A stretch of DNA of 64,000 nucleotides from an uncultured virus (IMG/VR IMGVR_UViG_3300017971_006749) (taxonomy: Duplodnaviria > Heunggongvirae > Uroviricota > Caudoviricetes): IMG/VR virus record IMGVR_UViG_3300017971_006749; one strand, 5' to 3'. Below the pieces are notes generated by a model. It saw only the letters and a list, made by a program, of their open reading frames with translations, was not told the DNA's origin and ran no database searches. The position numbers and the translations under genes were made by a program. Position 1 is the first letter of the stretch, and each line of letters begins with the position of its first letter. Of this stretch, positions 11,480 to 54,616 are shown piece by piece.

Positions 11480-12008
11480 TATTCACTCCACTATAGCATC
11501 CCAATCAATACCTCTTGCCTTCCATAATTGTGTATAATACTCTTCCATCTTACGATAGGCTATAATTGCAGCCTTTAGGCGGCTGTTTCTCGAAGAAGGG
11601 CCTGAGTCTAAACATCCATACACAGGCTCTCCTGATGCAGAGACTTGCAGTATTCGTGGAATAGCTCTTTTATTCACTTCGTCATGGCCGCCTTCACGTT
11701 TCAGAGGAAGCTGCCTGAGAGTATCATCTTGCCATGCTGTTAAATTACCATACTGAACTCCGGCTTTCCATGATGTGCTATCCACAGAATAGAATGGGTA
11801 TCTATCCAACATCCGCTTCTTAACACATCCGAACCCATGCAATCGAACCTTCTTCCGATAGGCCTGATGTATAATTGGCATATAGTTTAGCCGTTGCCTG
11901 TATATCCTATCCCCCTCAACAGCTACATATCGGCTTTCAGTCTCATCAAGCAATCTATCATAATCCAAAGATGTCATAACCTTTGGATGGTAGACAGTGA
12001 TACACTTA

Positions 12009-13078: not shown

Positions 13079-13486
13079 TTAGCAAAATATCCCTTCTCTT
13101 TTAATACTTCCCGCCACTTTCTCACAACTTCCTGCCCGACTAACTCACCGATATCAAGCTCTATATAATAATCTATTATTTCATAAACCTTATGCAGCCA
13201 TTGAAGAAACAGGCCAAAATAGCTCTCCGGGTCGTTATCTTCTTTTTTCTTTTTCACCCGGCCTGTGGTAGCTAATAAGGAATTATGCTCAGTAAAAAAA
13301 CTATGCGCGCCACTATCAACAATAAGGTGTGTGTCCGCTTTATCAAGCTCTTTGAGAAACAACTGCTGCTTATCACTGCTGCCATAGTAGTAACTCCAAA
13401 AGCCATGCCTGATCATCTTATCATCCAAAATCTCTTGATGGAGTGATGCCTTGGTAGTTTCTAAACCTGCAAGGTATATCCTCATA

Positions 13487-14518
13487 TCAAGCACCCATTA
13501 TATCAAGCATCTTATCAATATTCTCAGAATATCTGGCTGTATAAGACAAAAAAGTTTCAGTCATATCTAAAGCCCTTATGACCTTCTGAACTGCCTCATT
13601 AAACGTCTGGTACAAAAGCCGCCTATCGTTAACCAAAACATCCACATAGCTCAATTTGGCAGGGCATATCGGTATACAGCCTAATGCTAATCCTTCATTA
13701 AGAGCATATCCAAATGTCTCTTGATCTGCTGAAGAGAATAATACCTTTGCCCTTGCCAGTTCATCGTAATATTCTTGCTTGGTAAGTCCTGTCTTAGCTA
13801 CGATATGAGCAGGAAAGGTGAACCCAGGAATATTACTGGCTAATCGTTGTCTCGAAGTGGTCACTATACCTTCTACTGCTCTTCGTTTCTGTACTTCTTC
13901 TACAAGGTCAAAGAATATCTGTGGATTTTTCTCCTTATCTATCCTGTGTGGGAAAATTATTACCTGCTCTTTCTTGGTAACATTAGATTGGATGCTCTTA
14001 TGATCCCACACTAGCCCGGTATCATAAATATGGCTTAATCCTGTCCAGCCTTGAAGAAGCTCTTTATGGTATCTACTACCAACAAATACATAGTCAGCTA
14101 GAGTAAGCCAGCCCATTTCATTATGCCGCGCCCATTGCCTCATCTTATGGGTGAAATCATTAGGGTCAAAGACTCCCGCATAATGGACACCGGCAATTAC
14201 AATGCTAAGACCAAGCTGACTTTCCATATATCGCAACATCTCAATTCCGGGAAACCAGAGGTCAGCTATAAAGAATATGTCGCCATCGGATACCTTGTCA
14301 TCATGGAATAGTTGGCACAATTTCTGTAACTGTATCGCCTTATAGTAATTCGTACCTACGGCATCCAAAACTTCGCCATGTGTTATGCCCTTAGTCAATG
14401 GCTCGCCAGCTACCACAGTGTAAGGCACATCACATCGCTGGAATCCATCTATGACCCACTTATACATCTGGGCAGTATATCTCTCTTCTAGCGGCTCTAA
14501 TGGCACATACCACAACAT
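13487..14518 (-). CDS. GT-B (GT4-like) glycosyltransferase within the deazaguanine cluster
   Basis: FPHRIDKEKNP and QETFGYALNE (EX7E); PLEPLEERYT N-terminus. Confidence 0.8.
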   Translation of the reverse strand: MLWYVPLEPLEERYTAQMYKWVIDGFQRCDVPYTVVAGEPLTKGITHGEVLDAVGTNYYKAIQLQKLCQLFHDDKVSDGDIFFIADLWFPGIEMLRYMESQLGLSIVIAGVHYAGVFDPNDFTHKMRQWARHNEMGWLTLADYVFVGSRYHKELLQGWTGLSHIYDTGLVWDHKSIQSNVTKKEQVIIFPHRIDKEKNPQIFFDLVEEVQKRRAVEGIVTTSRQRLASNIPGFTFPAHIVAKTGLTKQEYYDELARAKVLFSSADQETFGYALNEGLALGCIPICPAKLSYVDVLVNDRRLLYQTFNEAVQKVIRALDMTETFLSYTARYSENIDKMLDIMGA

Positions 14519-14528
14519 TTTTCTTCTC

Positions 14529-15587
14529 CTATGACCATGGATCTATCAGCACTTTGCCACACTGTTTCGATGATTGTAATTCCCATGCTCGCTCAACCTG
14601 ACTCATAGGCAAAATATGAGTGACCATTTCATCAATCTCCGAGCGATTCTCCCGCATAATCTGCATCAGATGTTCATATCCTTTAAGGTTGTAATGCCAG
14701 ATACCATGTATTGATATACCTTTTAGATTTATCTGTGGAGTAACAACCGCTTCGATACTTCCGCCTTGTCCTATCAATGCTATCTCAGTCTGGATGCCAG
14801 CACAAGCTAAGGCTAAAGCTCTGCCACTCTCACTGCCCGAACATTCCAAAATATATCCCGGCCCTCCTGAGCTATCTATGACAACTTCTTTCACTTTAGA
14901 TTCTATATCAGCCTCGCCTGTCATAAAGACAATATCAGCACCAACACTCTTGGCTATCTCCCCCCGATATTCATGCTTCGCAATCGCTATGACGTTCTCA
15001 CCATAATGCTTGCCTAGGATTATAGCCCCTAATCCAACAGGCCCACAGCCAACGACCAAAGTGTACCCATTACCTGCTTTTAACATCCGCTGATATGCCC
15101 CATAAGCCGGGCCAAAACCGCATAAAGCCATCATAGCATACTTGAAATCAATATCATCGGGGATTCCTGTTAGAAGCCATGACGGCTTTAATAGATATTG
15201 AGCATAAGAGCCTGTGCCTATACTCGACCCTATCACATCTTCATACGAAAACCCATGAGGGCAAAAGATATAATCACCCGATTGACAAAATCTGCATTTA
15301 CCACATGATAATAACGGCTGTACAACGACCCTATCGCCTACCTCATAACCTTCCGAATGACTCTCTTCGATATAGCCAACTGCTTCATGTCCTAAAGAAC
15401 AACAATCTCCGCTAATGACACCACGATAAGGATATGTGAACTGCTCATTATTTATATACCCCTTATATTCAGTACATGCCCCCGCATATACAACTCGTAT
15501 CACCACGAGAGGCTCTTTAGGAACTGGCATAGCTTGATTGATTATCGTTACCTTATGATCAATAACTGCCGCTACCTTCATTGTCAC
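14529..15587 (-). CDS. Zn-dependent alcohol dehydrogenase (MDR family)
   Basis: GHEAVG, CGKCRFCQSGDYIFC, GCGPVG. Confidence 0.92.
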   Translation of the reverse strand: MTMKVAAVIDHKVTIINQAMPVPKEPLVVIRVVYAGACTEYKGYINNEQFTYPYRGVISGDCCSLGHEAVGYIEESHSEGYEVGDRVVVQPLLSCGKCRFCQSGDYIFCPHGFSYEDVIGSSIGTGSYAQYLLKPSWLLTGIPDDIDFKYAMMALCGFGPAYGAYQRMLKAGNGYTLVVGCGPVGLGAIILGKHYGENVIAIAKHEYRGEIAKSVGADIVFMTGEADIESKVKEVVIDSSGGPGYILECSGSESGRALALACAGIQTEIALIGQGGSIEAVVTPQINLKGISIHGIWHYNLKGYEHLMQIMRENRSEIDEMVTHILPMSQVERAWELQSSKQCGKVLIDPWS

Positions 15588-15814
15588 ATGACCTCATGTT
15601 CACCAAAATATACTTCTACCGGTCTATCGTAGCTACGATTCGCCCATATTATAGCATTAGATATTATTTTCATCACTATAGGGTTATCGTAGATACGATA
15701 TGACCTCATGTTCACCAAAATATACTTCTGCCGGTCTATCGTAGCTACGATTCGCCCATATTATAGCATTAGATATTATTTTCATCACTATAGGGTTATC
15801 GTAGATACGATATG
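15588..15814. repeat. 112 bp tandem duplication of the thuA 3' end
   Basis: Copies start at 15588 and 15700; one mismatch seen (ctacc/ctgcc); ATG microhomology at the junctions. Confidence 0.93.
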
Positions 15815-16418
15815 TGCCATGTCCCGGCCTGAAGTAAAAAATTCGCCCCCGACCCCTATTATAGGCACAACCACTACGGAATATCTCGCCTCCTGCAAAC
15901 CAGCTTATAAAAACTAGTTCATCAGGAGTGGGAATATCAAACCGTTCGCCATACATCTCGGCTTCAGGAATTTCTATATACTCAGGCAAATCTTGAGCTA
16001 CTGGATGAGCGGGATTGACAACCCAAATTCGCTCCATCTCAGCCCCATGCCGCCATTTAAGGTTACAGGTTGTACCCATTAACTGCTTGAATACCATAGA
16101 AAAATGTGACGAATGCAAAGCTACGAAGCCCATGCCATCTTCTAAAATTCTTCGTACTATTTTATCTACAATAACACGGTCAACCAATTCATGATCCATG
16201 TGCGCCCACCATACCAATACATCAACATCATCTAAAACGTGGTCAGGCAACCCATGATATGGCTGTTCCATAGTAGCCGTACTGACCAAGAGCCGGGCAT
16301 CAGGTAATAATTTCTCTGCTAAGGTGGTATGAACACCATCCGGGTAGACAGTAAGCATTTCTTTCGTACCTTCATCAACCCTGTTATCACACCATATCAT
16401 CGTCTTTATCGGCTGCAC
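15684..16418 (-). CDS. ThuA-like protein (class I GATase-like fold)
   Basis: VYPDG.H, DVLVWWAH, GFVALHSSHFS, EMYGERFDIP, IFYFRPGH. Confidence 0.88.
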   Translation of the reverse strand: MQPIKTMIWCDNRVDEGTKEMLTVYPDGVHTTLAEKLLPDARLLVSTATMEQPYHGLPDHVLDDVDVLVWWAHMDHELVDRVIVDKIVRRILEDGMGFVALHSSHFSMVFKQLMGTTCNLKWRHGAEMERIWVVNPAHPVAQDLPEYIEIPEAEMYGERFDIPTPDELVFISWFAGGEIFRSGCAYNRGRGRIFYFRPGHGTYRIYDNPIVMKIISNAIIWANRSYDRPAEVYFGEHEVISYLR

Positions 16419-16430
16419 ATCTAACTCCTT

Positions 16431-16763
16431 TCATGATTCAAGTAATGCTCCATTCTCTCCATCCTCGCTCACGTCAACCTTATATAGCCTATCGGTATAT
16501 CGTAGCTGAATTTCTTTCCCTATTGCCTCAGCTATCATCTCACAACTGCCTAAATCCTCCCTGTCTAAACGAGCTACCACGTCGCCTATAAGCCAATGAC
16601 GACATAATATATATTCAATATCCCTATCGTGGTGTAGCTGCTCAATATGAACCTTACAATGGAAGATATGCCTATGCTTAAAACGTAAGAATGCCACTTC
16701 ATCAGGAGCATTTAGCCATCTGTGATAGCCCTCAAACTGAAATGTGGTATATGCCCATAGCAT
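16431..16763 (-). CDS. dpdL: QueD paralog (T-fold), DpdL-like candidate CDG decarboxylase
   Basis: LRFKHRHIF fits the LxxxHRHxF signature recalled for DpdL; also SCEMIAE and VSEDGENGA. Confidence 0.65.
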   Translation of the reverse strand: MLWAYTTFQFEGYHRWLNAPDEVAFLRFKHRHIFHCKVHIEQLHHDRDIEYILCRHWLIGDVVARLDREDLGSCEMIAEAIGKEIQLRYTDRLYKVDVSEDGENGALLES

Positions 16764-16767
16764 AAGT

Positions 16768-17406
16768 CTAACCTATTAGGTGCATTAGTTCCTGACGAGC
16801 ATTAAGGTCATTAAAGAAAGCCCCCAATAACTTGCTCGTCTTAGTAATAGCTCCCGGTTTCCTTACTCCTCTTAATGTCATGCAAAGATGTTCTGCCTCG
16901 ATGATAACTGCCACTCCCTGAGGACTGGTCTTTTTCCATATATAATCAGCTATCTTACAGGTTAAGTCTTCCTGTATGGATAAGCCTAATGAAAAATGAT
17001 CAACAATTCTAGCCAGCTTCGATAATCCTAATAAATACTGGTTAGGGATGTAGGCCACATGAGCCTTACCAATATAGGGTAAAATGTGATGTTCGCATAT
17101 CGAAACCAAAGGAATATCCTTGCACAATATCAACTGGTCATACGATTCTCCATTACTAAAGAATGCCATAGAGAAAGCCTGTCTTTGTCTGAATTCTTCC
17201 CACATTCTAGCTACTCTATCAGGAGTATTCTTTAGTCCTTCCCTATCAGGATTCTCGCCAATACCTTCAAGAAATAAACGTATACTTCTTCTTATCTTAT
17301 CCTTATCAATATCCTGATCGGATGGCTGTACTATCTTAGGCCTAGTATCTTGTGTAGCTGTAGGCTCAGTCGCCAGCCCGGATGTTTTAATATCTTCTGC
17401 ACACAT
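16768..17406 (-). CDS. folE: GTP cyclohydrolase I
   Basis: [37 protein letters not shown]. Confidence 0.95.
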
Positions 17407-17891
17407 AATCTGGCTATCTCCAAATCGTTATCACATGGCTGTAAGTAAACTCCTGCTTCATACTCAATTCTATTAAAGTCTGATTCATTTTGTATGATGT
17501 ATTTCCACTCGTTTGCTATAGCTCTATTACCTATCTCTATCTCATGGCCTTTCTTAGGGCTTACTGTGATATGGTCAAATCCATCAGGTATAGGTAGTAT
17601 ACCATTAGTTTCTATAGATAATAAAAAATGACTGGCCTTTAGTTCGCTTATCAAAGGCTCAATCATCTGTATGGTAGGCTCTCCACCCGTTAGGCATATC
17701 CATGGTAGCTCGTATGATAGACACTGTTCGACTATTTGGCTTTCTGTCATTAAATTATAATTGGTATGATATTTGGTATCACACCACTCGCATTTTAGAT
17801 TGCAGCCCGATAGCCTTACGAAAATCATCGCCTGTCCTGCTTTAGCTCCTTCTCCCTGTATACTGGCAAATATTTCGTTTACCTTCAGCAT
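17331..17891 (-). CDS. queE: 7-carboxy-7-deazaguanine synthase (radical SAM)
   Basis: [36 protein letters not shown]. Confidence 0.95.
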
Positions 17892-18274
17892 GGCCGTTGT
17901 CCTCTTATATCACAATGGAATCCCCATGAATATCGTAATATCAACGGGAATTCATCATGAGCTATCTCGTATAATATATCCAAACCATTCATGTCCTGTG
18001 GAGCTATATCTACAGCATGACCATTGAGATGATATGAATCCCGTTTCCCACCTACAGCTATATTATGAGGTATACACCTAGTCCAAGACTTGATTATAAT
18101 AGGCCTTCCATATCGGACTCTAACACGAAAAATACATTCTAGCAATTCAGGTACTAATATTACAAGGCCACAGTCATGCCATACTTTGTAATCATCCTTC
18201 TGTTCCCATCCATGACACCGTATCTCAGCTAAGGAAAAATTGTCTATAGGTTTAGCTATCCAGTTTATAGCCAT
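17885..18274 (-). CDS. Peptidase M15 family protein (candidate endolysin)
   Basis: PIIIKSWTRC..HN.AVGG..DSYHL.GHAVDI...FHCDIR. Confidence 0.85.
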   Translation of the reverse strand: MAINWIAKPIDNFSLAEIRCHGWEQKDDYKVWHDCGLVILVPELLECIFRVRVRYGRPIIIKSWTRCIPHNIAVGGKRDSYHLNGHAVDIAPQDMNGLDILYEIAHDEFPLILRYSWGFHCDIRGQRPC

Positions 18275-18842
18275 ATCTTACTGCCATTTCCTTGATATAT
18301 TTAGTTAATTCATTATCACGAAATTCTAACTCATGCCATGATAAAGCTCTGAAATGACCCTTACGAGTATGAGTATTTCTGGGTATATTCGGTATTGGTT
18401 GATTCTTAATGCCTATCATATTACACAGCTTAGGCCATTCTGTATCTATATCCTCTACACGATAACGATAATCAGCATATTGTTCTATATGGCTATTTAA
18501 CACCAGCCAGAGTTTCATTACTGAATAGAGCTTGCCATATATTCTTGGATTGATGCCTGTATAATCTACCAGATAAGGCCATGACTTATCTATGACCTGC
18601 ATGGAAGCTATTGTTTTGAGCGGATCACGTATCTGATGAATAAGAAGCCCCTGTTTACATATAGCTGAATGAGGTATGATATGAAATGCTGATATACCTC
18701 GCTCTCCAAAAGCTTCATGCTTTACGTCTATCCCTACAGCTTGCAGGACATGAGCTATATACTGAGTTCCTGATCGTGGAGTCGCTGCTATGAATATATA
18801 CCCCTTCTTATCATAAGGCTGTATATTGAAATCATTTCTCAT
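18252..18842 (-). CDS. Sulfotransferase-like P-loop protein
   Basis: ATPRSGT PAPS-binding motif, IRDPLKTIAS, YRVED. Confidence 0.75.
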   Translation of the reverse strand: MRNDFNIQPYDKKGYIFIAATPRSGTQYIAHVLQAVGIDVKHEAFGERGISAFHIIPHSAICKQGLLIHQIRDPLKTIASMQVIDKSWPYLVDYTGINPRIYGKLYSVMKLWLVLNSHIEQYADYRYRVEDIDTEWPKLCNMIGIKNQPIPNIPRNTHTRKGHFRALSWHELEFRDNELTKYIKEMAVRYGYKLDS

Positions 18843-19338
18843 AATATATATCTAACAGATGTCTGTCTCTCCCTTTATTATCCAGCCCATAGCCATAGAC
18901 AAAATGGTCGTCAATATCTATTCCAACATAAGGACAGAATATAGAGAATTGCCTGTTGACTATCTTACTAAGTAAAACACACCACGTTATTGATTTAGCC
19001 TTCTTCATTCTTAATGCAGCACTGATAAATTTAGCAGTAGCTCCTGTATCTATAATATCATCTACTACTATTACATGCCTACCTGTAACATCAATACGAG
19101 CTTGCCATATCCACTGAACTTCATCGGCTGTCTGTCTGTCTCCATAACTACTTACCTTCACAAAATCTAGCTGATGAAGAATACCAAGCTGCCTCACTAA
19201 ATCACTGAAAAACATGAAGCCGCCATTTAATACACATAAGATAATAGGATCGGTATCGGCATAATCCTCATTGATAGATTGTGCTAATCTTGTTACGGCT
19301 CTTGCTATCTCATCATGCGCTATCAGTAAATTCGGCAT
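18832..19338 (-). CDS. hpt: Hypoxanthine/guanine phosphoribosyltransferase
   Basis: CVLNGGFMF, VSSY, VVDDIIDTG, FVYGYGLD. Confidence 0.92.
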   Translation of the reverse strand: MPNLLIAHDEIARAVTRLAQSINEDYADTDPIILCVLNGGFMFFSDLVRQLGILHQLDFVKVSSYGDRQTADEVQWIWQARIDVTGRHVIVVDDIIDTGATAKFISAALRMKKAKSITWCVLLSKIVNRQFSIFCPYVGIDIDDHFVYGYGLDNKGRDRHLLDIYYEK

Positions 19339-19660
19339 AACAGTCTGGACTCTCCCATATTCTGACCTTCTCGGTATTCTTAAATTTAGTTTTTATTTCA
19401 TAATAGAGATAACAGGCAAGGTTCTCAGCAGTAGGATTAAAATCACATATACCATTAAGATATTTGTGATCTGGTAATATGTCTCGAAGATAGGCTTTCA
19501 CATCCTTGAAATCTATAGCCAATCCAATTTCATTTAGCTTATCGAACAATAAAAACACTTCAACTATCCAGCGATGACCATGAAGTCTGCCGCAATCACC
19601 ATTATAGCCATCCAGAGAATGTGCTGCATCAAAATGTTCTTTAATACATATTCGGTACAT
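19313..19660 (-). CDS. queD: 6-carboxytetrahydropterin synthase
   Basis: FDAAH, CGRLHGH, DFKD, DHKYLN, PTAENLA, WESP; start moved to ATG 19660 with GGAG RBS. Confidence 0.93.
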   Translation of the reverse strand: MYRICIKEHFDAAHSLDGYNGDCGRLHGHRWIVEVFLLFDKLNEIGLAIDFKDVKAYLRDILPDHKYLNGICDFNPTAENLACYLYYEIKTKFKNTEKVRIWESPDCYAEFTDSA

Positions 19661-19998
19661 TACTCTCCTTTTGTGAGTCGTTGAAAAAAACCTATTGTTT
19701 GGAGGAAAGTTAATAGTGCTATTACGGCAAGTCCAATCTTTACCCACCAATCATGACTGGAACGTGCCTCATTCTTTGCTTGTGTCTCCTTTGCTAGAAC
19801 TCTCGCAACTTCTTCTTCATGTAATTTACCTTTTACTTCTAATTTGGTTAATCTTACAGCAATTTCGGCACAAGGAAATTTATCTATAATTTTCTTTATT
19901 TCGTTGACGTTATCAATGATAGGGTTTATCTTGGCATCCAATAATTCAGCAAATTTTCTCCAATCACCATTTTCCATCTCAATAATAGCTCCTGACAA
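19660..19998 (-). CDS. Coiled-coil protein with a C-terminal TM helix (holin-like candidate)
   Basis: WWVKIGLAVIALLTFLQTIGFF; same operon as the M15 peptidase. Confidence 0.4.
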   Translation of the reverse strand: MSGAIIEMENGDWRKFAELLDAKINPIIDNVNEIKKIIDKFPCAEIAVRLTKLEVKGKLHEEEVARVLAKETQAKNEARSSHDWWVKIGLAVIALLTFLQTIGFFQRLTKGE

Positions 19999-31280: not shown

Positions 31281-32660
31281 CTATATCGGAAATGGTTCTC
31301 TCATATATCCTTTAGCCAAATTCTCAAATCGTAACTTACTCATATTAAACATTAACTTAATCGTTCCAGTAGGCCCATTTCGTTGCTTACGAATAATCAC
31401 TTCAGTAGTATGATCGGCTAAATCTTTATCATAATAGCTCTCTCTATATAAGAACATAATCACATCAGCATCTTGCTCTATAGAACCACTGCCTCGTAAA
31501 TCAGACATCCCAGGTCGCTTGTCAGGCGCACCTTCCACACGTCTACTTAACTGAGAAGCTACAAGAATAGGTATATTCAATTCTCTAGCCAATTTCTTCA
31601 AGCCTTTTGATACATTGCTTAATTCCTGCTCTCGATTACCATATCTTAAAGTAGGATCGCTAATCTCTTGAATATAATCTACAGCTATTAACTGAATATC
31701 ATATTGCATTTTGGCTTGGTAAGCCTTCGTTCTCAAATCGCCAATACTGATACCGGCAGTATCATCTATAACGATAGGAGCTTCTGATAACTGTCCTGCT
31801 CCTATTGCCAACTTCCGCCAGTCCATTTCTCTCACTGTTCCATCCCGCAATGATTGACATGCCACATCACTTATAGAGCCTAGCATCCTGATTACTACCA
31901 TCTCTCTGTGCATCTCTGGTGAAAATAATAATACAGGCTGCTTATTCTTCACAGCAATATGCTCAATAATTCTTTGTATTATAGCAGATTTTCCCATCGA
32001 CGGCCTTGCTCCAATCACAATATATTCTGCTTTATGTAATCCCGCTATCATAGCATCTAAATCACTAAATCCGGTCGCCATCCCTGTGATACCATCCTTA
32101 CTCTGATATGCCTCATTGATATGATTAAAAGCCTCCTTTATAGTAGACTTAAATGAGACTAAATCATTGGATTCCTTACTGGTTATATCCATCACCTTAA
32201 GTTGGCTGGTAGACATTAAATCTTGAGCAGTAACCCCATCATCAAAAGCATTATTATATATTTCAGCAGATACACTAATTATTTTCCTTCGTATAGCCTC
32301 ATCTCTAACTAGCTTGACATAATATTCTACATTCTGAATGGTAGGTATTGATTCTATCATCTCGTCTAGATATGGCACACCACCAACGGCTTCTAAATCA
32401 GATGTACTTTCTAACTGCTCGGTAATCGTAAGTAAATCTACCGGTGAGGCATTATTGAATAATGTCTCTATAGCCTTATATATCAACCTATGAGATTCCT
32501 TGTAGAAATCACCAGCATCCATTTTAGATAATACCAAAGGTACTACCTGTTTACTATCCTCTGCCATCATCATAGCACCTAAAATGGCTCTTTCCGCATC
32601 GACATTCTGCGGTGCTACCCTATCAGGCCATCTAGCTACATTAAGATTCTTGTTATCCAA
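31281..32660 (-). CDS. dnaB: Replicative DNA helicase
   Basis: AERAILGA, GARPSMGKS, VDYIQ, SQLSR, DLRGSGSIEQDAD, KQRNGPTG; probable TTG start at 32660. Confidence 0.96.
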   Translation of the reverse strand: MDNKNLNVARWPDRVAPQNVDAERAILGAMMMAEDSKQVVPLVLSKMDAGDFYKESHRLIYKAIETLFNNASPVDLLTITEQLESTSDLEAVGGVPYLDEMIESIPTIQNVEYYVKLVRDEAIRRKIISVSAEIYNNAFDDGVTAQDLMSTSQLKVMDITSKESNDLVSFKSTIKEAFNHINEAYQSKDGITGMATGFSDLDAMIAGLHKAEYIVIGARPSMGKSAIIQRIIEHIAVKNKQPVLLFSPEMHREMVVIRMLGSISDVACQSLRDGTVREMDWRKLAIGAGQLSEAPIVIDDTAGISIGDLRTKAYQAKMQYDIQLIAVDYIQEISDPTLRYGNREQELSNVSKGLKKLARELNIPILVASQLSRRVEGAPDKRPGMSDLRGSGSIEQDADVIMFLYRESYYDKDLADHTTEVIIRKQRNGPTGTIKLMFNMSKLRFENLAKGYMREPFPI

Positions 32661-33309
32661 CTTTAGCCCCCTCCCCCATCCATGCCAAAGCATTATCTAT
32701 ATTGGCTTTCTGTGCCTGTTTTGCCAATTCTAATACCTGCTGAGGAGTCTTATATCTAAATAATTCATACAGTAGCTCGGTATCTTGTGAGCTAGGAGTA
32801 TAATATCTTTTATCGAGCTGCCGTAAAAATCTGAGGCCAAAGCTATCCAATTTTTCTAGTTGATTTTGCGATATACCACCTCCCTCAGCTAGTGATGGCT
32901 TATTCTGGAATGGAATCGTTTTCCATGCCTTCTTTTTTACCTCTCTAGCTGTCTCTTCTACCTTTATCTCTTCTTCGATATTTACCTCATTTACCTCAGG
33001 AACAATAATCGAATTGACCTTATAAGTTCCCGGTCGTGACCTGCCAGCACTCTTATATGTCCATATAGCCTTATTGTCAAGTGTACATTCCTTGAATACC
33101 CTCTCCCTCAACTTTGGAATATTAGGAGAAGCTACTCCACATTTTTCAGATAGCTCACTATTACCAACCTTGAAATCTGCTGGATAGTCACGTTCTTTCC
33201 ATACCGACATTACTGCTATGAAAAAGAAATGCCCCGGTTCGCCAAGTACCTTGGGATAATCAGCCTTATTATATCGTTCCATAATGTAATCATACAATTC
33301 TTGACCCAT
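32653..33309 (-). CDS. Hypothetical, possible replication initiator
   Basis: Directly upstream of dnaB; winged-helix-like N-terminus. Confidence 0.4.
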   Translation of the reverse strand: MGQELYDYIMERYNKADYPKVLGEPGHFFFIAVMSVWKERDYPADFKVGNSELSEKCGVASPNIPKLRERVFKECTLDNKAIWTYKSAGRSRPGTYKVNSIIVPEVNEVNIEEEIKVEETAREVKKKAWKTIPFQNKPSLAEGGGISQNQLEKLDSFGLRFLRQLDKRYYTPSSQDTELLYELFRYKTPQQVLELAKQAQKANIDNALAWMGEGAKVG

Positions 33310-46798: not shown

Positions 46799-47761
46799 TC
46801 ACTTAAGATTTCTCCATTGTATATCAGGATCGGGTATAGCTAGATTAGTATGTATTTTCTTAATCCAATCTTTGCAATCTTGATTGAATTTCTTTAAGTC
46901 TCTATACATCCATAAAAATTCCTCAATAGTTCTTTCCCATTCCATCCAATGTGCTATTACACGATAACCAACTCTGGTATGATCTACAGCATAATAATAA
47001 CCTGCTGGAAAGGTCATTTTATCTCCCTGCACACAGTGGCCTGATTCTGCCGTTATTACTATAACATTCTGACCAGCAAGTAAGGATAACAATGTTGTAC
47101 CTGTAGCAGTTCCAATCCTCATCTTAGCCTTAGCTATAGCCCATAAAGTACAATCCAATATCTCAACAGGATCATCAACTAAATCCCATACAGCAGGACA
47201 TTCAAGATGTGCTGTACTATCCGGCTGACCTGCTACCAAACATCTAATACCTTCCGTTTCTAAAGCCTGTTGAAATTCATGCCAATATGGAAATGACCTC
47301 ATCGCTGCATAACCCTGACATCTAGCAAAAAGCAATACATCAAAATCACAATCATATTCCTTGTTGTATTCTGGTATGAAATATTTATTTGCCCATTTGA
47401 AAGGCTCTACCGGCCCTATATACTTCCTTCGCCATTGTGGAGGCCTACCTGTCTTGATATGTTCATCCCAGACTTCAGGCTCAAAATGTTTTCTTATTTG
47501 ATCATGATAAGGTATAAATCCTTTAGGTACATTTTTACCGGCTTGTTGATAGATATTACCTCCTGCCTTCCGTTGAATAGCTGGTGGTCGTTCATAGGTA
47601 TATCGTTCGACACATCTTGGATATAAAGCTTCCATGCCTTTCTCATGACAGACAATCAAATCTCCTTTATATCCATATATACCCGGTACATGCTTCATTA
47701 TAGTACCTGATCCAAACTCTCCCATAAAAGGAAGGCATATAGGTATATCTTTATTTTTCAT
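46799..47761 (-). CDS. Putative GT-B (GT9-like) glycosyltransferase
   Basis: PFMGEFG, RSFPYW, AIAKAKMRIGTATGTTLLS resembles the GT9 C-terminus. Confidence 0.5.
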   Translation of the reverse strand: MKNKDIPICLPFMGEFGSGTIMKHVPGIYGYKGDLIVCHEKGMEALYPRCVERYTYERPPAIQRKAGGNIYQQAGKNVPKGFIPYHDQIRKHFEPEVWDEHIKTGRPPQWRRKYIGPVEPFKWANKYFIPEYNKEYDCDFDVLLFARCQGYAAMRSFPYWHEFQQALETEGIRCLVAGQPDSTAHLECPAVWDLVDDPVEILDCTLWAIAKAKMRIGTATGTTLLSLLAGQNVIVITAESGHCVQGDKMTFPAGYYYAVDHTRVGYRVIAHWMEWERTIEEFLWMYRDLKKFNQDCKDWIKKIHTNLAIPDPDIQWRNLK

Positions 47762-47881
47762 CTAAATCCCACCTCATATATTTCACCACATTCAGGACAT
47801 TCGATAAACTTAATATGCCAATTAAATAATACGATAAACGTTTTACCACATTCATCGCAGATATGCTCCTGTAGAATAAAA

Positions 47882-48307
47882 TTATATTCCATTATATTCA
47901 CTAGAACTATTTTCATAATCAGCTTCTTCCTTTAGCATCTCATAAATTTTCTGAATATCATATCCTATCTTATTCAATATCTTATTGGTATCTCTAACAC
48001 CTCTTAGTTTGCCATTTCGTTTTAGATATGGACATGGCAACTTCTTAATCTTACCATATAGCCTACATACTTTAGGCCGCTGCTCATAGATACTACATTG
48101 ATTTATCTCTCTATCCAAGAAAGCACATAAACCATCATCGGTATAAAGCAGCTTGAATTGTTCATCCATATCCTGTATTCTAGTAATTTCCACAGCTATC
48201 AAGTCTTTATTTTCTTCATACAAGGCTGATTCGATAGGTACTATACCGCAACATTCTGCTCCTTTGCATTTTCCTGCTGCTATTGCTTTAGAACATCGGA
48301 AGCCCAT
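47882..48307 (-). CDS. YkgJ-family cysteine-cluster protein
   Basis: C..C..CC, CAFLD....CSIYEQRPKVCRLY. Confidence 0.85.
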   Translation of the reverse strand: MGFRCSKAIAAGKCKGAECCGIVPIESALYEENKDLIAVEITRIQDMDEQFKLLYTDDGLCAFLDREINQCSIYEQRPKVCRLYGKIKKLPCPYLKRNGKLRGVRDTNKILNKIGYDIQKIYEMLKEEADYENSSSEYNGI

Positions 48308-48425
48308 CCTTTAATCCTCCTTAGATTCGGCTCTATGCGACTTCAACATCGGTTGTTATATATATATCATAAAGTTATTTAATATCGTTTAGAAACGAAC
48401 CTCGTCAGTTTAATCGGCATGTCTG

Positions 48426-49505
48426 CTATATTATTACCTCCTGACTTTCATCCTTCAATAACAATCCACTCTCAACATCTATATACTCGTTAGGAGAACC
48501 CCATTCTGACCTCCAATCCAGCCGTGTATAACAACAGAAATTGAAATACTTAAATGCTTTCCATATATTAGCTATATTCTGATTCTGCTCTAAGGCTCTA
48601 TGTCGTTGTAACATCTTACCACGACAGGTTTTTTTCTGTAGTGTAGCTCTGAAATGCCACCTACCATGTATAGATAGCATACGATTTAATCTCCATTGGT
48701 CTATATTCCAATCATATAATTCTGACCAATTTATCTCAGTCTTATCGTGAAATTTACATAGATACTTATCATCAGGTAATTTAGGCTCAAGAATATCTAT
48801 ACCAACATTATCATAATTATTATCCCATTCTGTGGTAATATCTCCCCATCGTCTACAAGTCCATCGTATTGAAGGTAACCTGATTATCTCTTCTAATAAT
48901 CCATCCATAATGATCATATAATTCATAGTAGGCATCTCAGACCGCTTAACTACATTCATGCCTAATTTGTGTATCTTGATAAAATGCTCTCCCCAAGTTT
49001 TAGGAGTAAAGAATGTGGCGCATGGATCGTAAGGACAACCGGAGGTAGCATGTATCTCGTATTTCTTATACCAGCCTGAATCAACACGACTTTGATTATA
49101 TTTCCAGTCTACCATAAGAATTCTATCACTCTGCTCTGCTAGCTTGAAATATGAACTTATATCGCCTACTATACACATATCGGCATCCATAAAACCTACA
49201 GCATCATAATCTGTCAGTCTGCCAGCATATAATGACCGATAGAACTTGAGATAATATACAGGCTTATGTCCCTGCTCTTCTAATCCTTCCTTGTTTCTGT
49301 AGTCCAGTAGATTTACAGGAATGAAATTAGGATAATGACCCGATGTTTGCATGTCATCTATGAACTTAACCATCTCTGCACCCGGCCAATAGAGTAGGTG
49401 AAACTCTATATCATCAAAGCCATAATACTTACTGGCATTGAGCATAGCATGGACACCGGGAAGGAGTCTACTATCGGCTGTCATTACTAAGGCATATTTA
49501 GACAT
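48426..49505 (-). CDS. GT-A glycosyltransferase-like protein (GT8-like), paralog 2
   Basis: TADSRLLPG, KFYRS, MDADMC, SIHGRWH. Confidence 0.65.
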   Translation of the reverse strand: MSKYALVMTADSRLLPGVHAMLNASKYYGFDDIEFHLLYWPGAEMVKFIDDMQTSGHYPNFIPVNLLDYRNKEGLEEQGHKPVYYLKFYRSLYAGRLTDYDAVGFMDADMCIVGDISSYFKLAEQSDRILMVDWKYNQSRVDSGWYKKYEIHATSGCPYDPCATFFTPKTWGEHFIKIHKLGMNVVKRSEMPTMNYMIIMDGLLEEIIRLPSIRWTCRRWGDITTEWDNNYDNVGIDILEPKLPDDKYLCKFHDKTEINWSELYDWNIDQWRLNRMLSIHGRWHFRATLQKKTCRGKMLQRHRALEQNQNIANIWKAFKYFNFCCYTRLDWRSEWGSPNEYIDVESGLLLKDESQEVII

Positions 49506-49519
49506 CTTTTCTCCATTGA

Positions 49520-49717
49520 CTAATCGTGTTTAGGACAACCCCCCATGATTACTTTTCCATAAGGTGCTTGATAATGACACTCACATCTCCAAGTACGAAA
49601 ATCTATCTTATTCATTACAAAACATTGCCACGATTTCCATTGATAAGCTGAATATGGTAATGCTCGACGTGCTTTTCTTGCCTTTATTATCCAATAAAAA
49701 GTCCCTTTATTCATCAT
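49520..49717 (-). CDS. Hypothetical protein
   Basis: 65 aa, GAAGGA RBS. Confidence 0.45.
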   Translation of the reverse strand: MMNKGTFYWIIKARKARRALPYSAYQWKSWQCFVMNKIDFRTWRCECHYQAPYGKVIMGGCPKHD

Positions 49718-49850
49718 CTATCCTTCTATTATATATTACTTCTTCTGTTCTTTAATAGGTTATTTAAGAACCTTTCTTTTGTATATTGGATATTCCAATA
49801 AGTTCATGGATTAGCTTGTTGGATTTTCCCACAAGCTAACATTCCTTCTA

Positions 49851-50341
49851 AACTCATTCCGCTGGCTGAGTACCGACTGATACTCCTGAAGAGCATGTAA
49901 ATAAGAAGGGCTGATACGGGAAATCAATATATCCAGAAATCTGCGTCGCTCAGATGGCGCTCCCTTTACCAGAGACAGATCTTCAGGGGAAAACATCACG
50001 ACGTTTATCTTGCCTATTACACTGGATATTCTATCCTGTGGCCTGCCATCTATTTTAACTCGCTTCTTCTCTCCGCAGGCGTTGATTATCTCCACCACGG
50101 TGGACAGGTTTCTGGATGAGACCTGTCCTTTCAGGTAGAACCACTCCTTCTCTTGCTGAATCAACTCGTCATCCCGGTTCGTTCGATGCGATTTTACTGT
50201 GGATAGAAAGTATATTCCCTCCAGAATATTGGTCTTCCCCTGGGCATTTTCACCGGTTATCAGGTTCACTCCGGTAGAGAACTGGAGATGCAGCGATTCA
50301 TAATTGCGAAAGTTGCGAAAAGTAATATTTCCAAGAAACAC
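49851..50341 (-). pseudogene. recF: recF 5' fragment (~163 codons), truncated
   Basis: NFRNY, GENAQGKTNILE, KSHRT, FSPEDL, ERRRFLD, QRN; then runs into unrelated AT-rich DNA and stops at 49811. Confidence 0.93.
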
Positions 50342-50354
50342 GGTAGAAATACTT

Positions 50355-50485
50355 TTGATTTTAGATTTTCGATTCTTGATTATCTAAGAAATTATAATTC
50401 GTACTATCCACTCCTGTCCCTTCTAACGCGAACATGAGCCATCTGATTCCCTGCAATCGAAAATCCAAAATCAGAAATCGAAAAT
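50355..50485. repeat. Inverted array of 7-mer repeats between dnaN and recF
   Basis: TTTTGATTTTAGATTTTCGATT ... AATCGAAAATCCAAAATCAGAAATCGAAAAT. Confidence 0.6.
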
Positions 50486-50492
50486 ACAACCT

Positions 50493-51650
50493 CTACACTC
50501 TCATGGGCATAATAACACACATATAATCCTGCTGGTCCTGATCTTCTTCCTGCGGCATTACAAGGACAGGACTCAGGGAATCTCTAAGCTTGAGAAGAAC
50601 CTCATCCGATTCGATGTTTCGCAGTACATCCATGACAAAACGGGCATTGAAGGCTATCTCAACACTGCTCCCTATGTTCTTCACTTCCATTTGCTCCTGC
50701 GCTTCGCCCAGTTCTGGCGTGCTGGCGGATACATTAAGCTCAGTTTCTTTGGCTTCCATTCTTACAGAAGGAGTCTTGGGATTCGCCAGTAGCGATACTC
50801 GTCTGATAACGGACAAAAGCTGTTCCGTCCCGGCTACCAGATCTATCTCATTGCTTATGGCCGGAGCCATTACCGCTTCGTAGTCCGGGTATTCACCCTC
50901 AATCAATCTGGAGATAAGCGTTATGTTTTCTGTAGCGAATGCAATTTGGTTCTCCAGAATAGCGATCTTCACATCCTCATCAGCCGTAAAGGTTCTGGAT
51001 ATGTTATTGATGGCTTTGGTGGGGATAATGACACCTATTTCTTCCTCTACGGAGTTTGGCTGATTCTGAGTCACAACAGCCAACCTTCTACCATCTGTGG
51101 CTACCATCTTTATGAAATCAGAATTCATACGTAGATAAATCCCATTCAGAAAATGCCGAGTTTCTTCTGTAGAGACCGCAAATTCCGTCTTCCTAATCAT
51201 ACGACGCAGGACACCGGAGTTCACCACCAGGAAATCATCTCCGATTTCAGGTAAAGAAGGGAATTCCTCATCAGTCAGGCCCACAATTCTGAATCTAGTG
51301 CTTTCGCAGTTGAGTTCTACCCTGTCATTGGCCAGAGTCGTCAGCTTAACTTTGGCCGCCTCGCCTGAATTTGAAGTGGAAGGAAGCTCTCGTACTATGT
51401 CAACCAACTTCTTAGCGGGAACGGTTATGGACCCGGCTTCCACAATCTCACCTTTAACAGCGGCTTTCACGCCAACTTCCAGATCTGTTGCAGCTAATTG
51501 AATGTGATCATCCACTGCTCTGATCAGAACGTTTGACAAAATTGGTAATGTGTTTCTACTTGCTGCTACGTTACCGGCTATCTGCATAGCTTCCCATAAA
51601 TCTTCCCTCTCAAATATTAATTCCATAGCAAATCTCCCAGTGATTGACAA
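50493..51650 (-). CDS. dnaN: DNA polymerase III beta sliding clamp (likely start MELIF)
   Basis: LPILSNVLI, ATDLE, LNGIY, VATDGRRLA, SRLIEGEYPDY, IAFNARF, VIMPMR; full length. Confidence 0.97.
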   Translation of the reverse strand: MSITGRFAMELIFEREDLWEAMQIAGNVAASRNTLPILSNVLIRAVDDHIQLAATDLEVGVKAAVKGEIVEAGSITVPAKKLVDIVRELPSTSNSGEAAKVKLTTLANDRVELNCESTRFRIVGLTDEEFPSLPEIGDDFLVVNSGVLRRMIRKTEFAVSTEETRHFLNGIYLRMNSDFIKMVATDGRRLAVVTQNQPNSVEEEIGVIIPTKAINNISRTFTADEDVKIAILENQIAFATENITLISRLIEGEYPDYEAVMAPAISNEIDLVAGTEQLLSVIRRVSLLANPKTPSVRMEAKETELNVSASTPELGEAQEQMEVKNIGSSVEIAFNARFVMDVLRNIESDEVLLKLRDSLSPVLVMPQEEDQDQQDYMCVIMPMRV

Positions 51651-51734
51651 AGATCTTGCCAGATTGCATTATCCATAGAAAATAGTTTTTTTCCCTCCGG
51701 TTATAGTACCGGATCCGGTTACTCTATTACTACT

Positions 51735-51985
51735 CCTAATAAGTTTAAAATATAGTAGTAGTAGTAGTAGGCGATGTGGAAATGTGGATAACTCAACCGG
51801 ACGTAGACACTGTCTAGTCCGGACGTTGTGGATAACCAGTGGAAAGTTTTCCACAATTTTTCCACATTTCCACAGTGTGGAAAAGTTATCCACAACATTG
51901 CTCAAGTTATCCACCGGTTATCCACCGGTTGTCCACCGGTTATCCACCGGTTGTCCACCGGTTATCCACCGGTTATCCACCGGTT
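51735..51985. promoter_or_regulatory. Bacterial chromosomal replication origin (oriC)
   Basis: Between dnaA and dnaN. Perfect DnaA boxes at 51783-91, 51827-35 and 51886-94 plus several near-matches; six TAG DnaA-trios at 51753-70; GC spacer and AT-rich tract. Confidence 0.9.
51906..51982 (+). repeat. Seven tandem 11 bp DnaA-box-like repeats
   Basis: GTT(A/G)TCCACCG x7. Confidence 0.93.
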
Positions 51986-52044
51986 TCTTGTCTTCACCAG
52001 TATTGTCAGCAAAAATGGCTATTATAGCCTTATGTCATCAGCCT

Positions 52045-52247
52045 CTAGCTCTCTTTGACTTCCTCCATGAGTTGATCTATCGTCTTTGCAAATCCCGGAT
52101 CATTTTGCATGGCTTCGTCGATCTTATTGCAGGCATGCATAACCGTTGTATGATCCTTTCTGCCAAAATCCCTTCCTACGTCTATCAGAGACAGGTTTGT
52201 AAGACGACGACAGAGATACATAGCCACGTGTCTTGGCAGAGTCAGAA
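52045..52247 (-). pseudogene. dnaA: dnaA 3' fragment (domain IV)
   Basis: [40 protein letters not shown]; in-frame TAG immediately upstream, rest of dnaA absent. Confidence 0.92.
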
Positions 52248-52317
52248 TCTATAATTGAAACCGACCCCGAAATAACCTTATTATCTAAATCCATTTTACA
52301 TTCCTCCATAATTATAT

Positions 52318-52887
52318 CTAATCTGAACTATAGTTATACCCTGCTGTATAACCACGTTCATATATCTCTCGATATATTTCACTGGTAGACTCGCCTTTAG
52401 TATATGGTGCTAACAGTACTTTTCCACCATAGCTCTCAACAGCTTTTTTCTCATCTTCATCTAGTCTCTCTATAGTATAGTCTCCACCTTTGATATAGTA
52501 ATCTGGCTTTATGGTTTTTATACAGTTCGTTGCTGTAGATTCATTATAGATTATTACATGATCAACATCCCTAAAAGAAGCTAACATGGTCGCTCTGTTC
52601 ATTTCAGTATTGATTAGTGGATGAAGTTTATCAAGATTCTTCGTTGATTCATCACTATTGATTCCAACTATGGTATGACCATGCTTTCGACAATAACTAA
52701 GCAATTCTAAATGACCTAAATGTAAAATATCAAAAACTCCATTTGTCCATACTCGTTTATGACTATCTGAATCCATACTCAACATCATCAATAAAGCCCA
52801 ATTCTCTAATCTAGTAGAAGTCATTTCTTCACATACTATTTTACCTGACTTCTCATTCGATTTCACATAGTGTATCAATTTATACAT
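52318..52887 (-). CDS. HldC/RfaE domain II-like nucleotidyltransferase
   Basis: WTNGVFDILHLGH, VGINSDES, KPDYYIKGGDY, STSEI. Confidence 0.88.
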   Translation of the reverse strand: MYKLIHYVKSNEKSGKIVCEEMTSTRLENWALLMMLSMDSDSHKRVWTNGVFDILHLGHLELLSYCRKHGHTIVGINSDESTKNLDKLHPLINTEMNRATMLASFRDVDHVIIYNESTATNCIKTIKPDYYIKGGDYTIERLDEDEKKAVESYGGKVLLAPYTKGESTSEIYREIYERGYTAGYNYSSD

Positions 52888-52892
52888 TTTTA

Positions 52893-53849
52893 TTATACCT
52901 TTGGTATTGATGGAAATTCTCCCCATATCCAATCTATTTTCAGATAAAGTTCTGTATTGAAATACTTGAAGAAATCCCATATTAGCTTCGTATTATGTAT
53001 ACCATTCCGTTTGCTCTGCTGGTCATGACCATTCATCAGCCGTTCACACATCCTCTGCCCCCAATAACGTCTATGGATGGTATGAAGTATATCACCATTT
53101 TGATGTATACCTATATGTTTCTTTTTACCTATCATACGTTCCTGTAGCTTTACATGATTATTCTGTACAAATACCCATTGAGTCGATGGCAACGGATATA
53201 CGTCTTTAATCATGCCTGTCTGAAGTAATGTAAGATTTACCGGATGCATATCGCCTGTAGTTTCACGTCCATAGGTAGGATGGTATTTCTTAGGATTCAT
53301 AGCATATTCAGGTATCAATGGAAATAGCTCTTTAGCTCGTCTGCCTGTAATAAAATAGGGATTACTGTATAGTGGTGGATTCTTACTCATAGCTCTATCA
53401 TCATCATAATTAAACCACATAGCATCTGACCAGTCATTACCTGCCAGTCCTATCATATCAGACCTAGCTATCATATCGAACCATCTGGTGAAATTACTGA
53501 CTATAATTCTATCAGCATCAAGTATACAAATAGCATCATAATCTGATAATTTATCTACAGGATACCACCATCTGGCAAACTTCATGCTGGATTTGCTATG
53601 CTTCTTCTGCTCTTGCCAATATTCATTACGACATTCTTCGTAATACTCATTGATATTCACAGGATGAAAAAACGACCCAAAAGCTATCCTAGCCTCCTGA
53701 ATATATCTACTATTTTCAGGAATAGAATGCACTAAATGAAATTCTACATTATCAGAAAGACCATAATATTTCATGCCATTTAACATTGCATTATAACCCG
53801 CTAGGAATCTTTCATCAGCAGTTACCACTATAGCAAATTTACCATTCAT
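52893..53849 (-). CDS. GT-A glycosyltransferase-like protein (GT8-like), paralog 3
   Basis: TADERFLAG, KFARW, LDADR, TIHRRYW. Confidence 0.65.
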   Translation of the reverse strand: MNGKFAIVVTADERFLAGYNAMLNGMKYYGLSDNVEFHLVHSIPENSRYIQEARIAFGSFFHPVNINEYYEECRNEYWQEQKKHSKSSMKFARWWYPVDKLSDYDAICILDADRIIVSNFTRWFDMIARSDMIGLAGNDWSDAMWFNYDDDRAMSKNPPLYSNPYFITGRRAKELFPLIPEYAMNPKKYHPTYGRETTGDMHPVNLTLLQTGMIKDVYPLPSTQWVFVQNNHVKLQERMIGKKKHIGIHQNGDILHTIHRRYWGQRMCERLMNGHDQQSKRNGIHNTKLIWDFFKYFNTELYLKIDWIWGEFPSIPKV

Positions 53850-54130
53850 GTCGTTTTCCTCTCTTCTTTATTTTTGGAGTATTAGACCAGATAGCTGCTA
53901 TACAGGTCATAATAAGTGGTATTCCAATAACTGTGAATATTACAGCCAATATTCCAAATAAATGTTCATACCATGTCATCCTATCATCATCACCTTTAAT
54001 TTGCGCTCTATGCGATTTGTTCTTCCGTATGTATAATATATCACAAAACTATATGAAACCCCTTAGAAACGAAATTTGCCCTACTCAACAGCTTATTAAA
54101 CATAATATTACCACAGCTATTCTTTAATTA

Positions 54131-54616
54131 CTATCTCCTAACTATCCACATTTTACATGCCCGTACAGGAGCAGTCTCAACATTCATCTCATCATAATAC
54201 CTATCCACTGCTTTCTTCACACCCGGAAACCTTCTATTTTGATAATCATGACCACAGATAATTCCACCTTTTCTAACTTTAGGTGTCCATAGATGTATAT
54301 CTCTATCAACTGATTCTTCATCATGTAAACCGTCTATAAATATCAAGTCAAATTTATTGGTATTACTGTAGAAATATACAGCCGCTTCTTTAGATGTCAT
54401 CTCGTAAAGTTTAGCTTCTGGATGTCTGGAACAGAAGTCGTATATACCATACTGATTATTCAATGCAGGATCGACTAAGACATAACTATCAAGGTCGCAA
54501 TTCTCCATTACAGGAATAGCTGTCTCACCCTTGCAAACACCTATCTCTCCTATTTTCTTATAGCCATATTTGTTGATTAAATCTATAATGACCTGCGCCC
54601 GTTGCGTTATTCTCAT
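54131..54616 (-). CDS. Class I SAM methyltransferase (Methyltransf_24-like)
   Basis: EIGVCKG, FDLIFIDGLH, GGIICGHDY, GVKKAVD. Confidence 0.88.
   Translation of the reverse strand: MRITQRAQVIIDLINKYGYKKIGEIGVCKGETAIPVMENCDLDSYVLVDPALNNQYGIYDFCSRHPEAKLYEMTSKEAAVYFYSNTNKFDLIFIDGLHDEESVDRDIHLWTPKVRKGGIICGHDYQNRRFPGVKKAVDRYYDEMNVETAPVRACKMWIVRR

Follow-up and report, generated by a model that had tools for sequence, protein, structure and literature searches.

How a piece of bacterial chromosome came to lie among the genes of a tailed phage, and what it may do there, are the questions raised by a 64,000-nucleotide stretch of DNA (the window) from IMG/VR record IMGVR_UViG_3300017971_006749. The piece occupies window positions 49851-52247 on the minus strand and contains, in the same orientation as the phage genes, the 3' end of dnaA, an origin region, dnaN, and the 5' end of recF (dnaA'-origin-dnaN-recF'; 2,397-2,400 bp in total). 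It was confirmed to be a real capture of host DNA within the phage genome. The most probable reading is that a fragment of the origin locus of a Poribacteria-related bacterium was captured recently by illegitimate recombination, and that a phage accessory clamp gene has thus been caught at birth. A preliminary description of this DNA had named the parts of the segment, their coordinates, and the points at which dnaA and recF are cut, and all were found as described (Table 1).

The bacterial locus L006 has the gene order dnaA, origin, dnaN, recF, followed by a small open reading frame (ORF) and a long ORF running off the locus. The dnaA fragment of the insert matches positions 34-69 of the 69 positions of the Pfam family Bac_DnaA_C (E 4e-16). 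Its translation begins straight after an in-frame stop, aligns with the end of the L006 DnaA, and is out of frame with the upstream phage ORF. The recF fragment produced Pfam matches to SMC_N and AAA_23 and shares 70% identity with the L006 RecF over 168 amino acids (aa); its reading frame continues through 12 phage-derived codons to a stop at 49811-49813. Between them, dnaN is of full length and free of internal stops. Its product matches PF00712, PF02767, and PF02768 (E 2e-34, 2e-34, and 3e-25, respectively), and its best bacterial homologues (e.g., P0002-P0004) cover 98% of the query. The insert had also been described as more GC-rich, which is correct in that its guanine-plus-cytosine (GC) content is 0.446 as compared to 0.378 and 0.360 in the 10 kb on either side, but this property is not unique to it, as four further 1-kb stretches of the window exceed 0.45. 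Judged from these sequence comparisons, the insert is singled out by homology and not by GC content alone.

The main alternative put forward in the preliminary description was a chimera of phage and bacterial reads, formed in the assembly or in the library. Several features of the locus are compatible with it: the composition shifts abruptly, the genes at both ends are truncated, the nearest IMG/VR record stops at window position 48359, short of the insert, and the left junction is bridged only by the window's own assembly and by run X2, which is possibly the source sample. Sequence across the junctions and continuity of coverage, which had been proposed as a check, were obtained from sequencing runs. 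Of the 21 runs listed, 18, which come from 11 studies, share some sequence with the stretch, and in 8 of them half or more of its words are present; the contigs of four runs, X2 to X5, were compared with window positions 47500-54500. The X2 data are Logan contigs, which were built by a different assembler; record 1 (5,696 bp) spans 47500-51939 with 0 differences and record 4 spans 51945-53307, so that both junctions are bridged and the sole break is at an 11-bp tandem array. The right junction is also crossed by a separate contig of the Joint Genome Institute (JGI), L173 (1,442 bp), which corresponds to window positions 52898-51457 at 99.58% identity and has 6 differing sites, divided equally (3 each) between the phage flank and the array. 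In X5, which belongs to another study, 30 of 30 bins are covered at about 0.2-5x, 19 of 20 pieces are at least 99% identical, the phage allele is present at the covered sites that differ from the donor, and flanks and insert have similar depth; among the X5 pieces listed, none crosses a junction. Furthermore, the exact DnaN is present on 3 contigs from 3 sources, the longest of 91,804 bp, and the phage-donor identity at the junctions amounts to only 3-4 bp, which is too short to mislead a k=31 graph. A chimera is now very improbable.

The positions of the junctions are fixed by the alignments of bacterial homologues. Of the 8 loci extending to the recF end of the insert, 5 have BLAST alignments that end at this junction (L164, L171, L172, and L004 at 49851 and L006 at 49850), and on the dnaA side the alignments end at 52238-52250. 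One ORF on each flank is a paralogue of the other (28% identity by BLASTP, E 8e-27), and both flanks have a GC content of 0.36-0.38, which indicates that they are flanks of one phage genome. This agrees with the earlier claim of phage genes on both sides of the insert, with portal, large terminase (TerL), DnaB, and Erf genes in the window and paralogous flanking ORFs. All ORFs of at least 100 aa with a family match in the window are on the minus strand, and as a set, with a head/pilot protein, an endolysin, and an Erf-like annealing protein also among the products, they correspond to a tailed phage.

The donor was found in two further runs. In X3 (marine, 2024) and X4 (estuary, 2023), the depth is about 10-20x over 49851-52250 but zero on the adjoining flanks, with faint cover only at 47500-47967, 52648-52881, and 53818-54285, which is a further argument against a chimera. 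Their contigs diverge from the window exactly at 49851. The 34-nucleotide overhang of the X3 contig, read by hand in the recF frame, continues from ...QRNE with LLKSIRDKKV, and bacterial RecF homologues read QRNELLKSIRDK.. at that point (QRNELLKSIRDKRT in L164 and QRNELLKNIRDKKA in L004). Because recF is uninterrupted beyond 49851 in X3 and X4, these runs hold the bacterial donor chromosome. Record 14 of X4 differs from the window at 4 of 936 bases and record 13 of X3 at 2 of 875 bases, the latter having in addition a 1-base indel and an array that is 33 bp shorter. The identity between donor and window is thus about 99.6-99.7% over the covered parts, which points to a very recent capture.

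Searches with DnaN retrieved metagenomic proteins of up to 99% identity, and the only named close matches were from Candidatus Poribacteria (P0048, 70%; P0057, 67%). A profile search of representative genomes identified two Candidatus Poribacteria metagenome-assembled genomes (70% and 66%) and another metagenome-assembled genome (65%), followed by a next best match of 38%; a search of representative genomes with the single DnaN sequence gave no match. Judging from the best DnaN identities of 65-70%, the set of representative genomes searched does not include the donor species. Metagenome loci share 86% (L164) and 70-81% (L166-L172) nucleotide identity with the window, and their GC content of 0.455-0.468 is similar to that of the insert. 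The nearest named relatives suggest that the donor is a Poribacteria-related bacterium. In dnaN, the sole difference that is fixed with respect to both X3 and X4 is at 51299, where the phage encodes T110 and the donor A110. The protein P0002, encoded on a 13.7-kb ENA contig, has A110 and M257 and is probably of the donor type, and A110 is kept in at least 90% of 28 aligned relatives. One change in dnaN is too few for inferring selection.

As to the mode of capture, the preliminary description had noted TCTA at both ends of the insert. Both copies are present (49847-49850 and 52248-52251), but they do not hold up as a 4-bp duplication: the X4 donor contig aligns through 52250, and the donor thus shares 3 of the 4 bases at the dnaA junction. 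From the sequence, the repeat has the appearance of microhomology and not of a target-site duplication. The in-frame ORF that is rejoined upon removal of the insert, which had likewise been noted, is weak evidence, as excisions of 2397, 2400, and 2401 bp all leave an open ORF of 27-29 codons. Neither terminal inverted repeats at 49851 and 52247 nor long direct repeats were found, and no transposase is encoded nearby or in the insert, which holds only dnaA', dnaN, and recF'. A transposon or insertion sequence was rejected for the lack of terminal repeats and transposase and because most of the repeated 4-mer (3 of 4 bases) also belongs to the donor sequence. A specialized transducing phage formed by aberrant excision was also rejected, given the phage genes on both sides, the paralogous flanks, and the absence of an integrase among the 69 ORFs scanned in the window, beyond which lie about 28 kb of contig. 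The breakpoints within dnaA and recF, the 3-4 bp of similarity at the junctions, and the lack of mobile-element features point to illegitimate recombination. This may have occurred during infection, by microhomology or end joining, or a host fragment may have been taken up at a break. A hairpin with 13-bp arms (inverted repeat I20, 49811..49839) is located in the phage flank, 11 bp off the left junction, and is a possible break or stall site. The Erf-like annealing protein of the phage is also noted in the context of the capture mechanism.

The insert appears to be fixed in the phage populations sampled. No empty-site joint was found in any of the four runs X2-X5. A megablast search of 49000-53000 against phage records gave no match, and viral contigs contained neither a relative of DnaN nor one of the left flank ORF, nor an exact match to either flank beside the junctions, so that no empty-site or sister phage was identified there.

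The intergenic region between dnaA' and dnaN carries a dense set of DnaA boxes. A scan of the window for TTATCCACA with at most 1 mismatch identified 45 sites, as compared to 24.6 +/- 5.3 in shuffled sequences, and 0 of 100 shuffles reached 45. The densest 400-bp span contains 12 boxes, whereas elsewhere in the window there are at most 3. Seven boxes form a tandem array with a period of 11 bp, in which every unit corresponds to a DnaA box carrying 1-2 mismatches and the phasing equals one helical turn; homologous phased arrays were detected in bacterial relatives (alignment A2). At 51931-51965, the array of the X3 and X4 contigs lacks 33 bp, or three units, as compared to the phage. The difference was not taken as evidence of an expansion in the phage, since contig graphs collapse such repeats; it reflects either true variation in copy number or a collapse in the X3 and X4 contigs.

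According to the search rules published in PMC8287927, a basal unwinding system has a DnaA box that departs from TTATCCACA at no more than 2 positions, 0-16 bp between the best box and the first trio (with a peak at 10-13 bp), and at least 3 DnaA-trios (NAN, consensus 3'-GAT-5'). The insert sequence fits this pattern and contains a perfect box, a gap of 12 bp to the first trio (51771-51782) that is made up of a second box and 3 bp, and six trios on the correct strand, (TAG)x6 at 51753-51770 on the plus strand and 5' of the boxes on that strand. This arrangement of box pair and trios (CTACTACTACTACTA) is invariant in 9 of 9 aligned sequences, namely, the window and 8 bacterial loci, and the adjoining AT-rich stretch is a candidate duplex-unwinding element. 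The phage origin is about 99.7% identical to that of the donor, and the differences, substitutions at 51823 and 51838 and a T indel at 51685, are all outside the boxes. The box cluster would very probably bind host DnaA.

However, the claim that oriC is intact was found to be only partially correct. The dnaA-dnaN sub-origin is complete in sequence, but a second DnaA-box cluster of 4-10 boxes, which is located upstream of dnaA in 5 of the 5 relatives having that sequence (L006, L166, L167, L169, and L170), was not captured, as the insert begins 67 codons before the dnaA stop. The notion that the insert is the complete chromosomal origin of this lineage was rejected for this reason. Box clusters were found just upstream of dnaA at 2001-2250 in L006, 7751-8250 in L169, and 4501-5000 in L170, and the Poribacteria-type origin region looks bipartite.

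Phage clamp genes are a known and recurrent acquisition. Among 50,697 phage records, 160 contain a DnaN homologue; none of these reaches 60% identity to the window DnaN, and the best has 35%. The window DnaN matches phrog_947 (E 8e-74), but its gene keeps its host flanks, and no phage record exceeds 35% identity to its product. In 4 of the 4 phage dnaN loci inspected (Rhizobium phages 16-3 and RR1-A, Caulobacter phage Sansa, and Ralstonia phage GP4), the gene is packed among phage genes with gaps of 2-86 bp, and there are 0 DnaA boxes in 6 kb. Some phage records with DnaN matches (H8, H9, H3, and H6) look like host DNA filed as phage, one being a 6.1-kb record labelled "Staphylococcus phage" and others Salmonella contigs about 0.5 Mb long. 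The lambda small RNA LPR1/PreS is described as enhancing the translation of host dnaN, affecting phage DNA replication, and aiding infection (bioRxiv 10.1101/2024.10.31.621285), which makes a benefit from clamp supply plausible.

In the scenario that we consider probable, an origin-locus fragment of a Poribacteria-related bacterium was pasted into the sugar/nucleotide-modification cluster of a marine tailed phage, to which it would deliver an intact, host-identical beta-clamp gene and a complete dnaA-dnaN origin module. The benefit may come mainly from an extra supply of clamp for phage replication, whereas the DnaA-box cluster would be a passenger to which host DnaA can bind; when phage copies are numerous, it would tend to sequester DnaA and need not fire as an origin. 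Such a raw capture, before trimming, would be the first step toward an established phage clamp gene. Several findings, among them the limited bridging of the left junction, weigh against this scenario. No empty-site relative was found that would show the original target sequence or bear out the fixation of the insert, and contigs drop rare variants. The single fixed change in the phage dnaN is non-synonymous, affects a conserved residue, and could equally reflect relaxed constraint. No DNA polymerase was found in the 64-kb window, but about 28 kb more contig lies beyond it, and dependence on the host DNA polymerase III is an assumption. The terminator-like hairpin past the dnaA stop could keep phage transcription from reading through into dnaN, and the number of promoter-like sites does not exceed that in shuffled sequences (12 vs 8.1 +/- 3.5).

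The same dnaN change, together with random breakpoints, the retention of useless gene stubs, and a GC content that has not shifted toward that of the phage (0.446 vs 0.455-0.468 in the donor clade), would also fit a neutral or slightly harmful hitch-hiker that is of no use and soon lost. This is considered rather unlikely, since dnaN is intact, only the insert-bearing form was seen, with no empty-site joint in the four runs, and this form was spanned or matched in at least 3 studies (P1 or P2, P5) and in a JGI contig. It is considered improbable that the captured origin is active on phage DNA, with DnaA either starting phage replication or being sequestered such that host initiation stops. As a working second origin, the captured boxes would allow host DnaA to open the trios and the AT-rich element and to start theta replication of the phage DNA, perhaps helped by the phage DnaB-like helicase. 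The basal unwinding pattern, its invariance among the nine aligned origins, and the near identity to the donor, with the few changes outside the boxes, are in favor of this idea, but the phage lacks the upstream box cluster found in all five relatives, and both origin box clusters are needed in some bacteria, e.g., B. subtilis. In addition, the phage already has its own replication genes, a 7-deazaguanine-type modified G might disturb DnaA binding, and GC skew shows no switch at the insert site, although the insert is too young for one; a second origin is therefore regarded as highly doubtful. Only slightly less doubtful is a role as a DnaA sink, in which hundreds of phage copies with about 13-15 boxes each would titrate DnaA, block rounds of host replication, and free replisome parts. 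The density of the cluster (13 boxes in 313 bp) would suit this role, titration of DnaA by cloned box clusters is well established in E. coli (PMC5835720), and phage-borne DnaA-box arrays are described in T5-like phages (bioRxiv 10.1101/866236). However, there is no signal of selection on the boxes beyond donor inheritance, and the longer array of the phage may reflect k-mer collapse in the X3 and X4 contigs.

The surroundings of the insert provide further information on this phage. The insert lies inside a run of sugar/nucleotide enzymes (38000-60000) that includes PfkB and GHMP kinases, a DHH phosphoesterase, a cytidylyltransferase, an epimerase, two Methyltransf_24 proteins, and paralogous unknown ORFs and that is possibly a DNA hypermodification or glycan cluster. 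The cytidylyltransferase has 317 distant relatives in IMG/VR, none above 47% identity. A 7-deazaguanine-type gene set with FolE, QueD, QueE, and transglycosylase-like matches is located at 11483-19750 and suggests a modified guanine in the phage DNA. The compositionally most deviant segment of the window is not the insert but positions 1-2400 (GC up to 0.51; tetranucleotide distance 0.48 vs 0.37 for the insert), which encode a Laminin_G_3/lectin-like protein and are perhaps a swapped tail-fibre module. There are no tRNAs in the window. The nearest public viral record, G001, is identical to the window up to its end, about 1.5 kb short of the insert; such an end would be expected had a provirus-boundary caller assigned both the dnaN region and the sugar-enzyme genes beyond it to the host.

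Table 1. Features of the insert, its junctions, and the phage genome (window coordinates)
Feature	Position	Strand	Remarks
TCTA/TAGA, second copy	49847..49850		First phage bases past the insert; donor sequence differs
recF 5' fragment	49851..50341	-	163 codons + 2 nt; Walker A region included
dnaN-recF spacer	50342..50492		151 bp; 7-bp repeats and an inverted repeat
dnaN	50493..51626	-	Intact, 377 aa; ATG at 51626; ORF 51650..50493
DnaA-box-rich intergenic region	51651..52044		394 bp, non-coding
DnaA-box cluster	51669..51981		13 boxes with <= 1 mismatch (313 bp), including the 3 perfect ones of the window
AT-rich stretch adjoining trios	51720..51752	-	Position conserved in alignment A2
Unwinding module	51753..51791	-	Perfect box 51783-51791, second box 51774-51782, 3-bp spacer, (TAG)x6
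Tandem array	51906..51985		7.3 units x 11 bp (GTTATCCACCG); Tandem Repeats Finder score 146; repeat family D1
Terminator-like hairpin	52017..52029	-	Just past dnaA stop; consensus scan, counts not above shuffles
dnaA 3' fragment	52045..52247	-	67 terminal codons + stop; partial domain IV
Small phage ORF, 5' part, split by insert	52248..52294	-	ATG at 52294; contains TAGA/TCTA 52248-52251
Phage flank gene	48426..49505	-	Paralogue of 52893-53849
Cytidylyltransferase-like gene	52318-52980	-	Pfam CTP_transf_like, E 5.5e-17
Phage flank paralogue	52893-53849	-	BLASTP to 48426-49505
Portal	7146-8564	-	Family match
Large terminase (TerL)	8577-10277	-	Family match
Transglycosylase-like pieces	11483-11977 and 13048-13494		Family match
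GTP cyclohydrolase	16768-17406
QueE-like	17331-17891
QueD-like	19313-19750
DnaB-like helicase	31281-32693	-	phrog_19, E 9e-102

This locus illustrates, with the donor sequence known, the acquisition of a host replication gene by a phage, with gene stubs and origin still attached; established phage clamp genes have been trimmed clean, whereas the product seen here is raw and untrimmed. It also links the phage, which is marine and uncultured, to a Poribacteria-related host through a DNA identity of about 99.6-99.7%, which is a far stronger signal than those usually available for host prediction. The phage is a natural construct in which the unwinding module of a host origin is placed on a lytic-type phage genome, and it may serve to ask whether host DnaA acts there. 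If the origin were active, the phage would be a naturally occurring virus that exploits a stolen chromosomal origin, seen within about 0.3% divergence of the theft. Given the way in which G001 ends, such captures may be systematically cut from viral databases.

Links to several known systems emerge. The lambda-asn transducing phage carries oriC. Its laboratory counterpart lambda-tna carries dnaA and dnaN, as described in PMC5835720. Together with oriC minichromosomes, these phages resemble the present case in that DNA of the host origin locus is joined to a phage genome, and cloned oriC can drive DnaA-dependent replication and titrate DnaA. However, lambda transducing phages arise by aberrant prophage excision beside the attachment site and were selected in the laboratory, whereas the insert described here is natural, was found in several samples, and is surrounded by phage DNA within a phage gene cluster; in contrast to those phages, no integrase or att site was seen in the window. 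In the literature searched, no natural phage with a homologous copy of a host oriC was found, which is not proof that none has been published; Ori-Finder predicted an "oriC" in phage G. The conserved DnaA-box sets of T5-like phages (bioRxiv 10.1101/866236), located in the injection-stop region, also place host-initiator sites on phage DNA, but those arrays are phage-evolved, whereas that of the window is a homologous, about 99.7% identical copy of a host origin with its flanking genes. The putative origin module itself resembles B. subtilis incC and H. pylori oriC2 in that a box pair and TAG trios, set apart by a short spacer, lie together with AT-rich DNA between the dnaA and dnaN genes; it differs from bacterial dnaA-dnaN origins in being on a phage and in lacking the upstream cluster of its bacterial relatives.

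Regarding the clamp, LPR1/PreS of lambda is related to the idea of clamp supply, as a raised supply has been suggested to help a phage that uses the host replication machinery, but it acts by control of a host gene at the RNA level, whereas here a copy of the gene was captured. The clamps of phrog_947, such as p081 of Rhizobium phage 16-3, gp102 of Caulobacter phage Sansa, and gp55 of Ralstonia phage GP4, are bacterial-type three-domain DnaN proteins like that of the window. These known phage clamps are at most 35% identical to it and come with no origin DNA and no dnaA or recF stubs, whereas the dnaN of the window is nearly identical to the bacterial gene and has kept its chromosomal neighbors.

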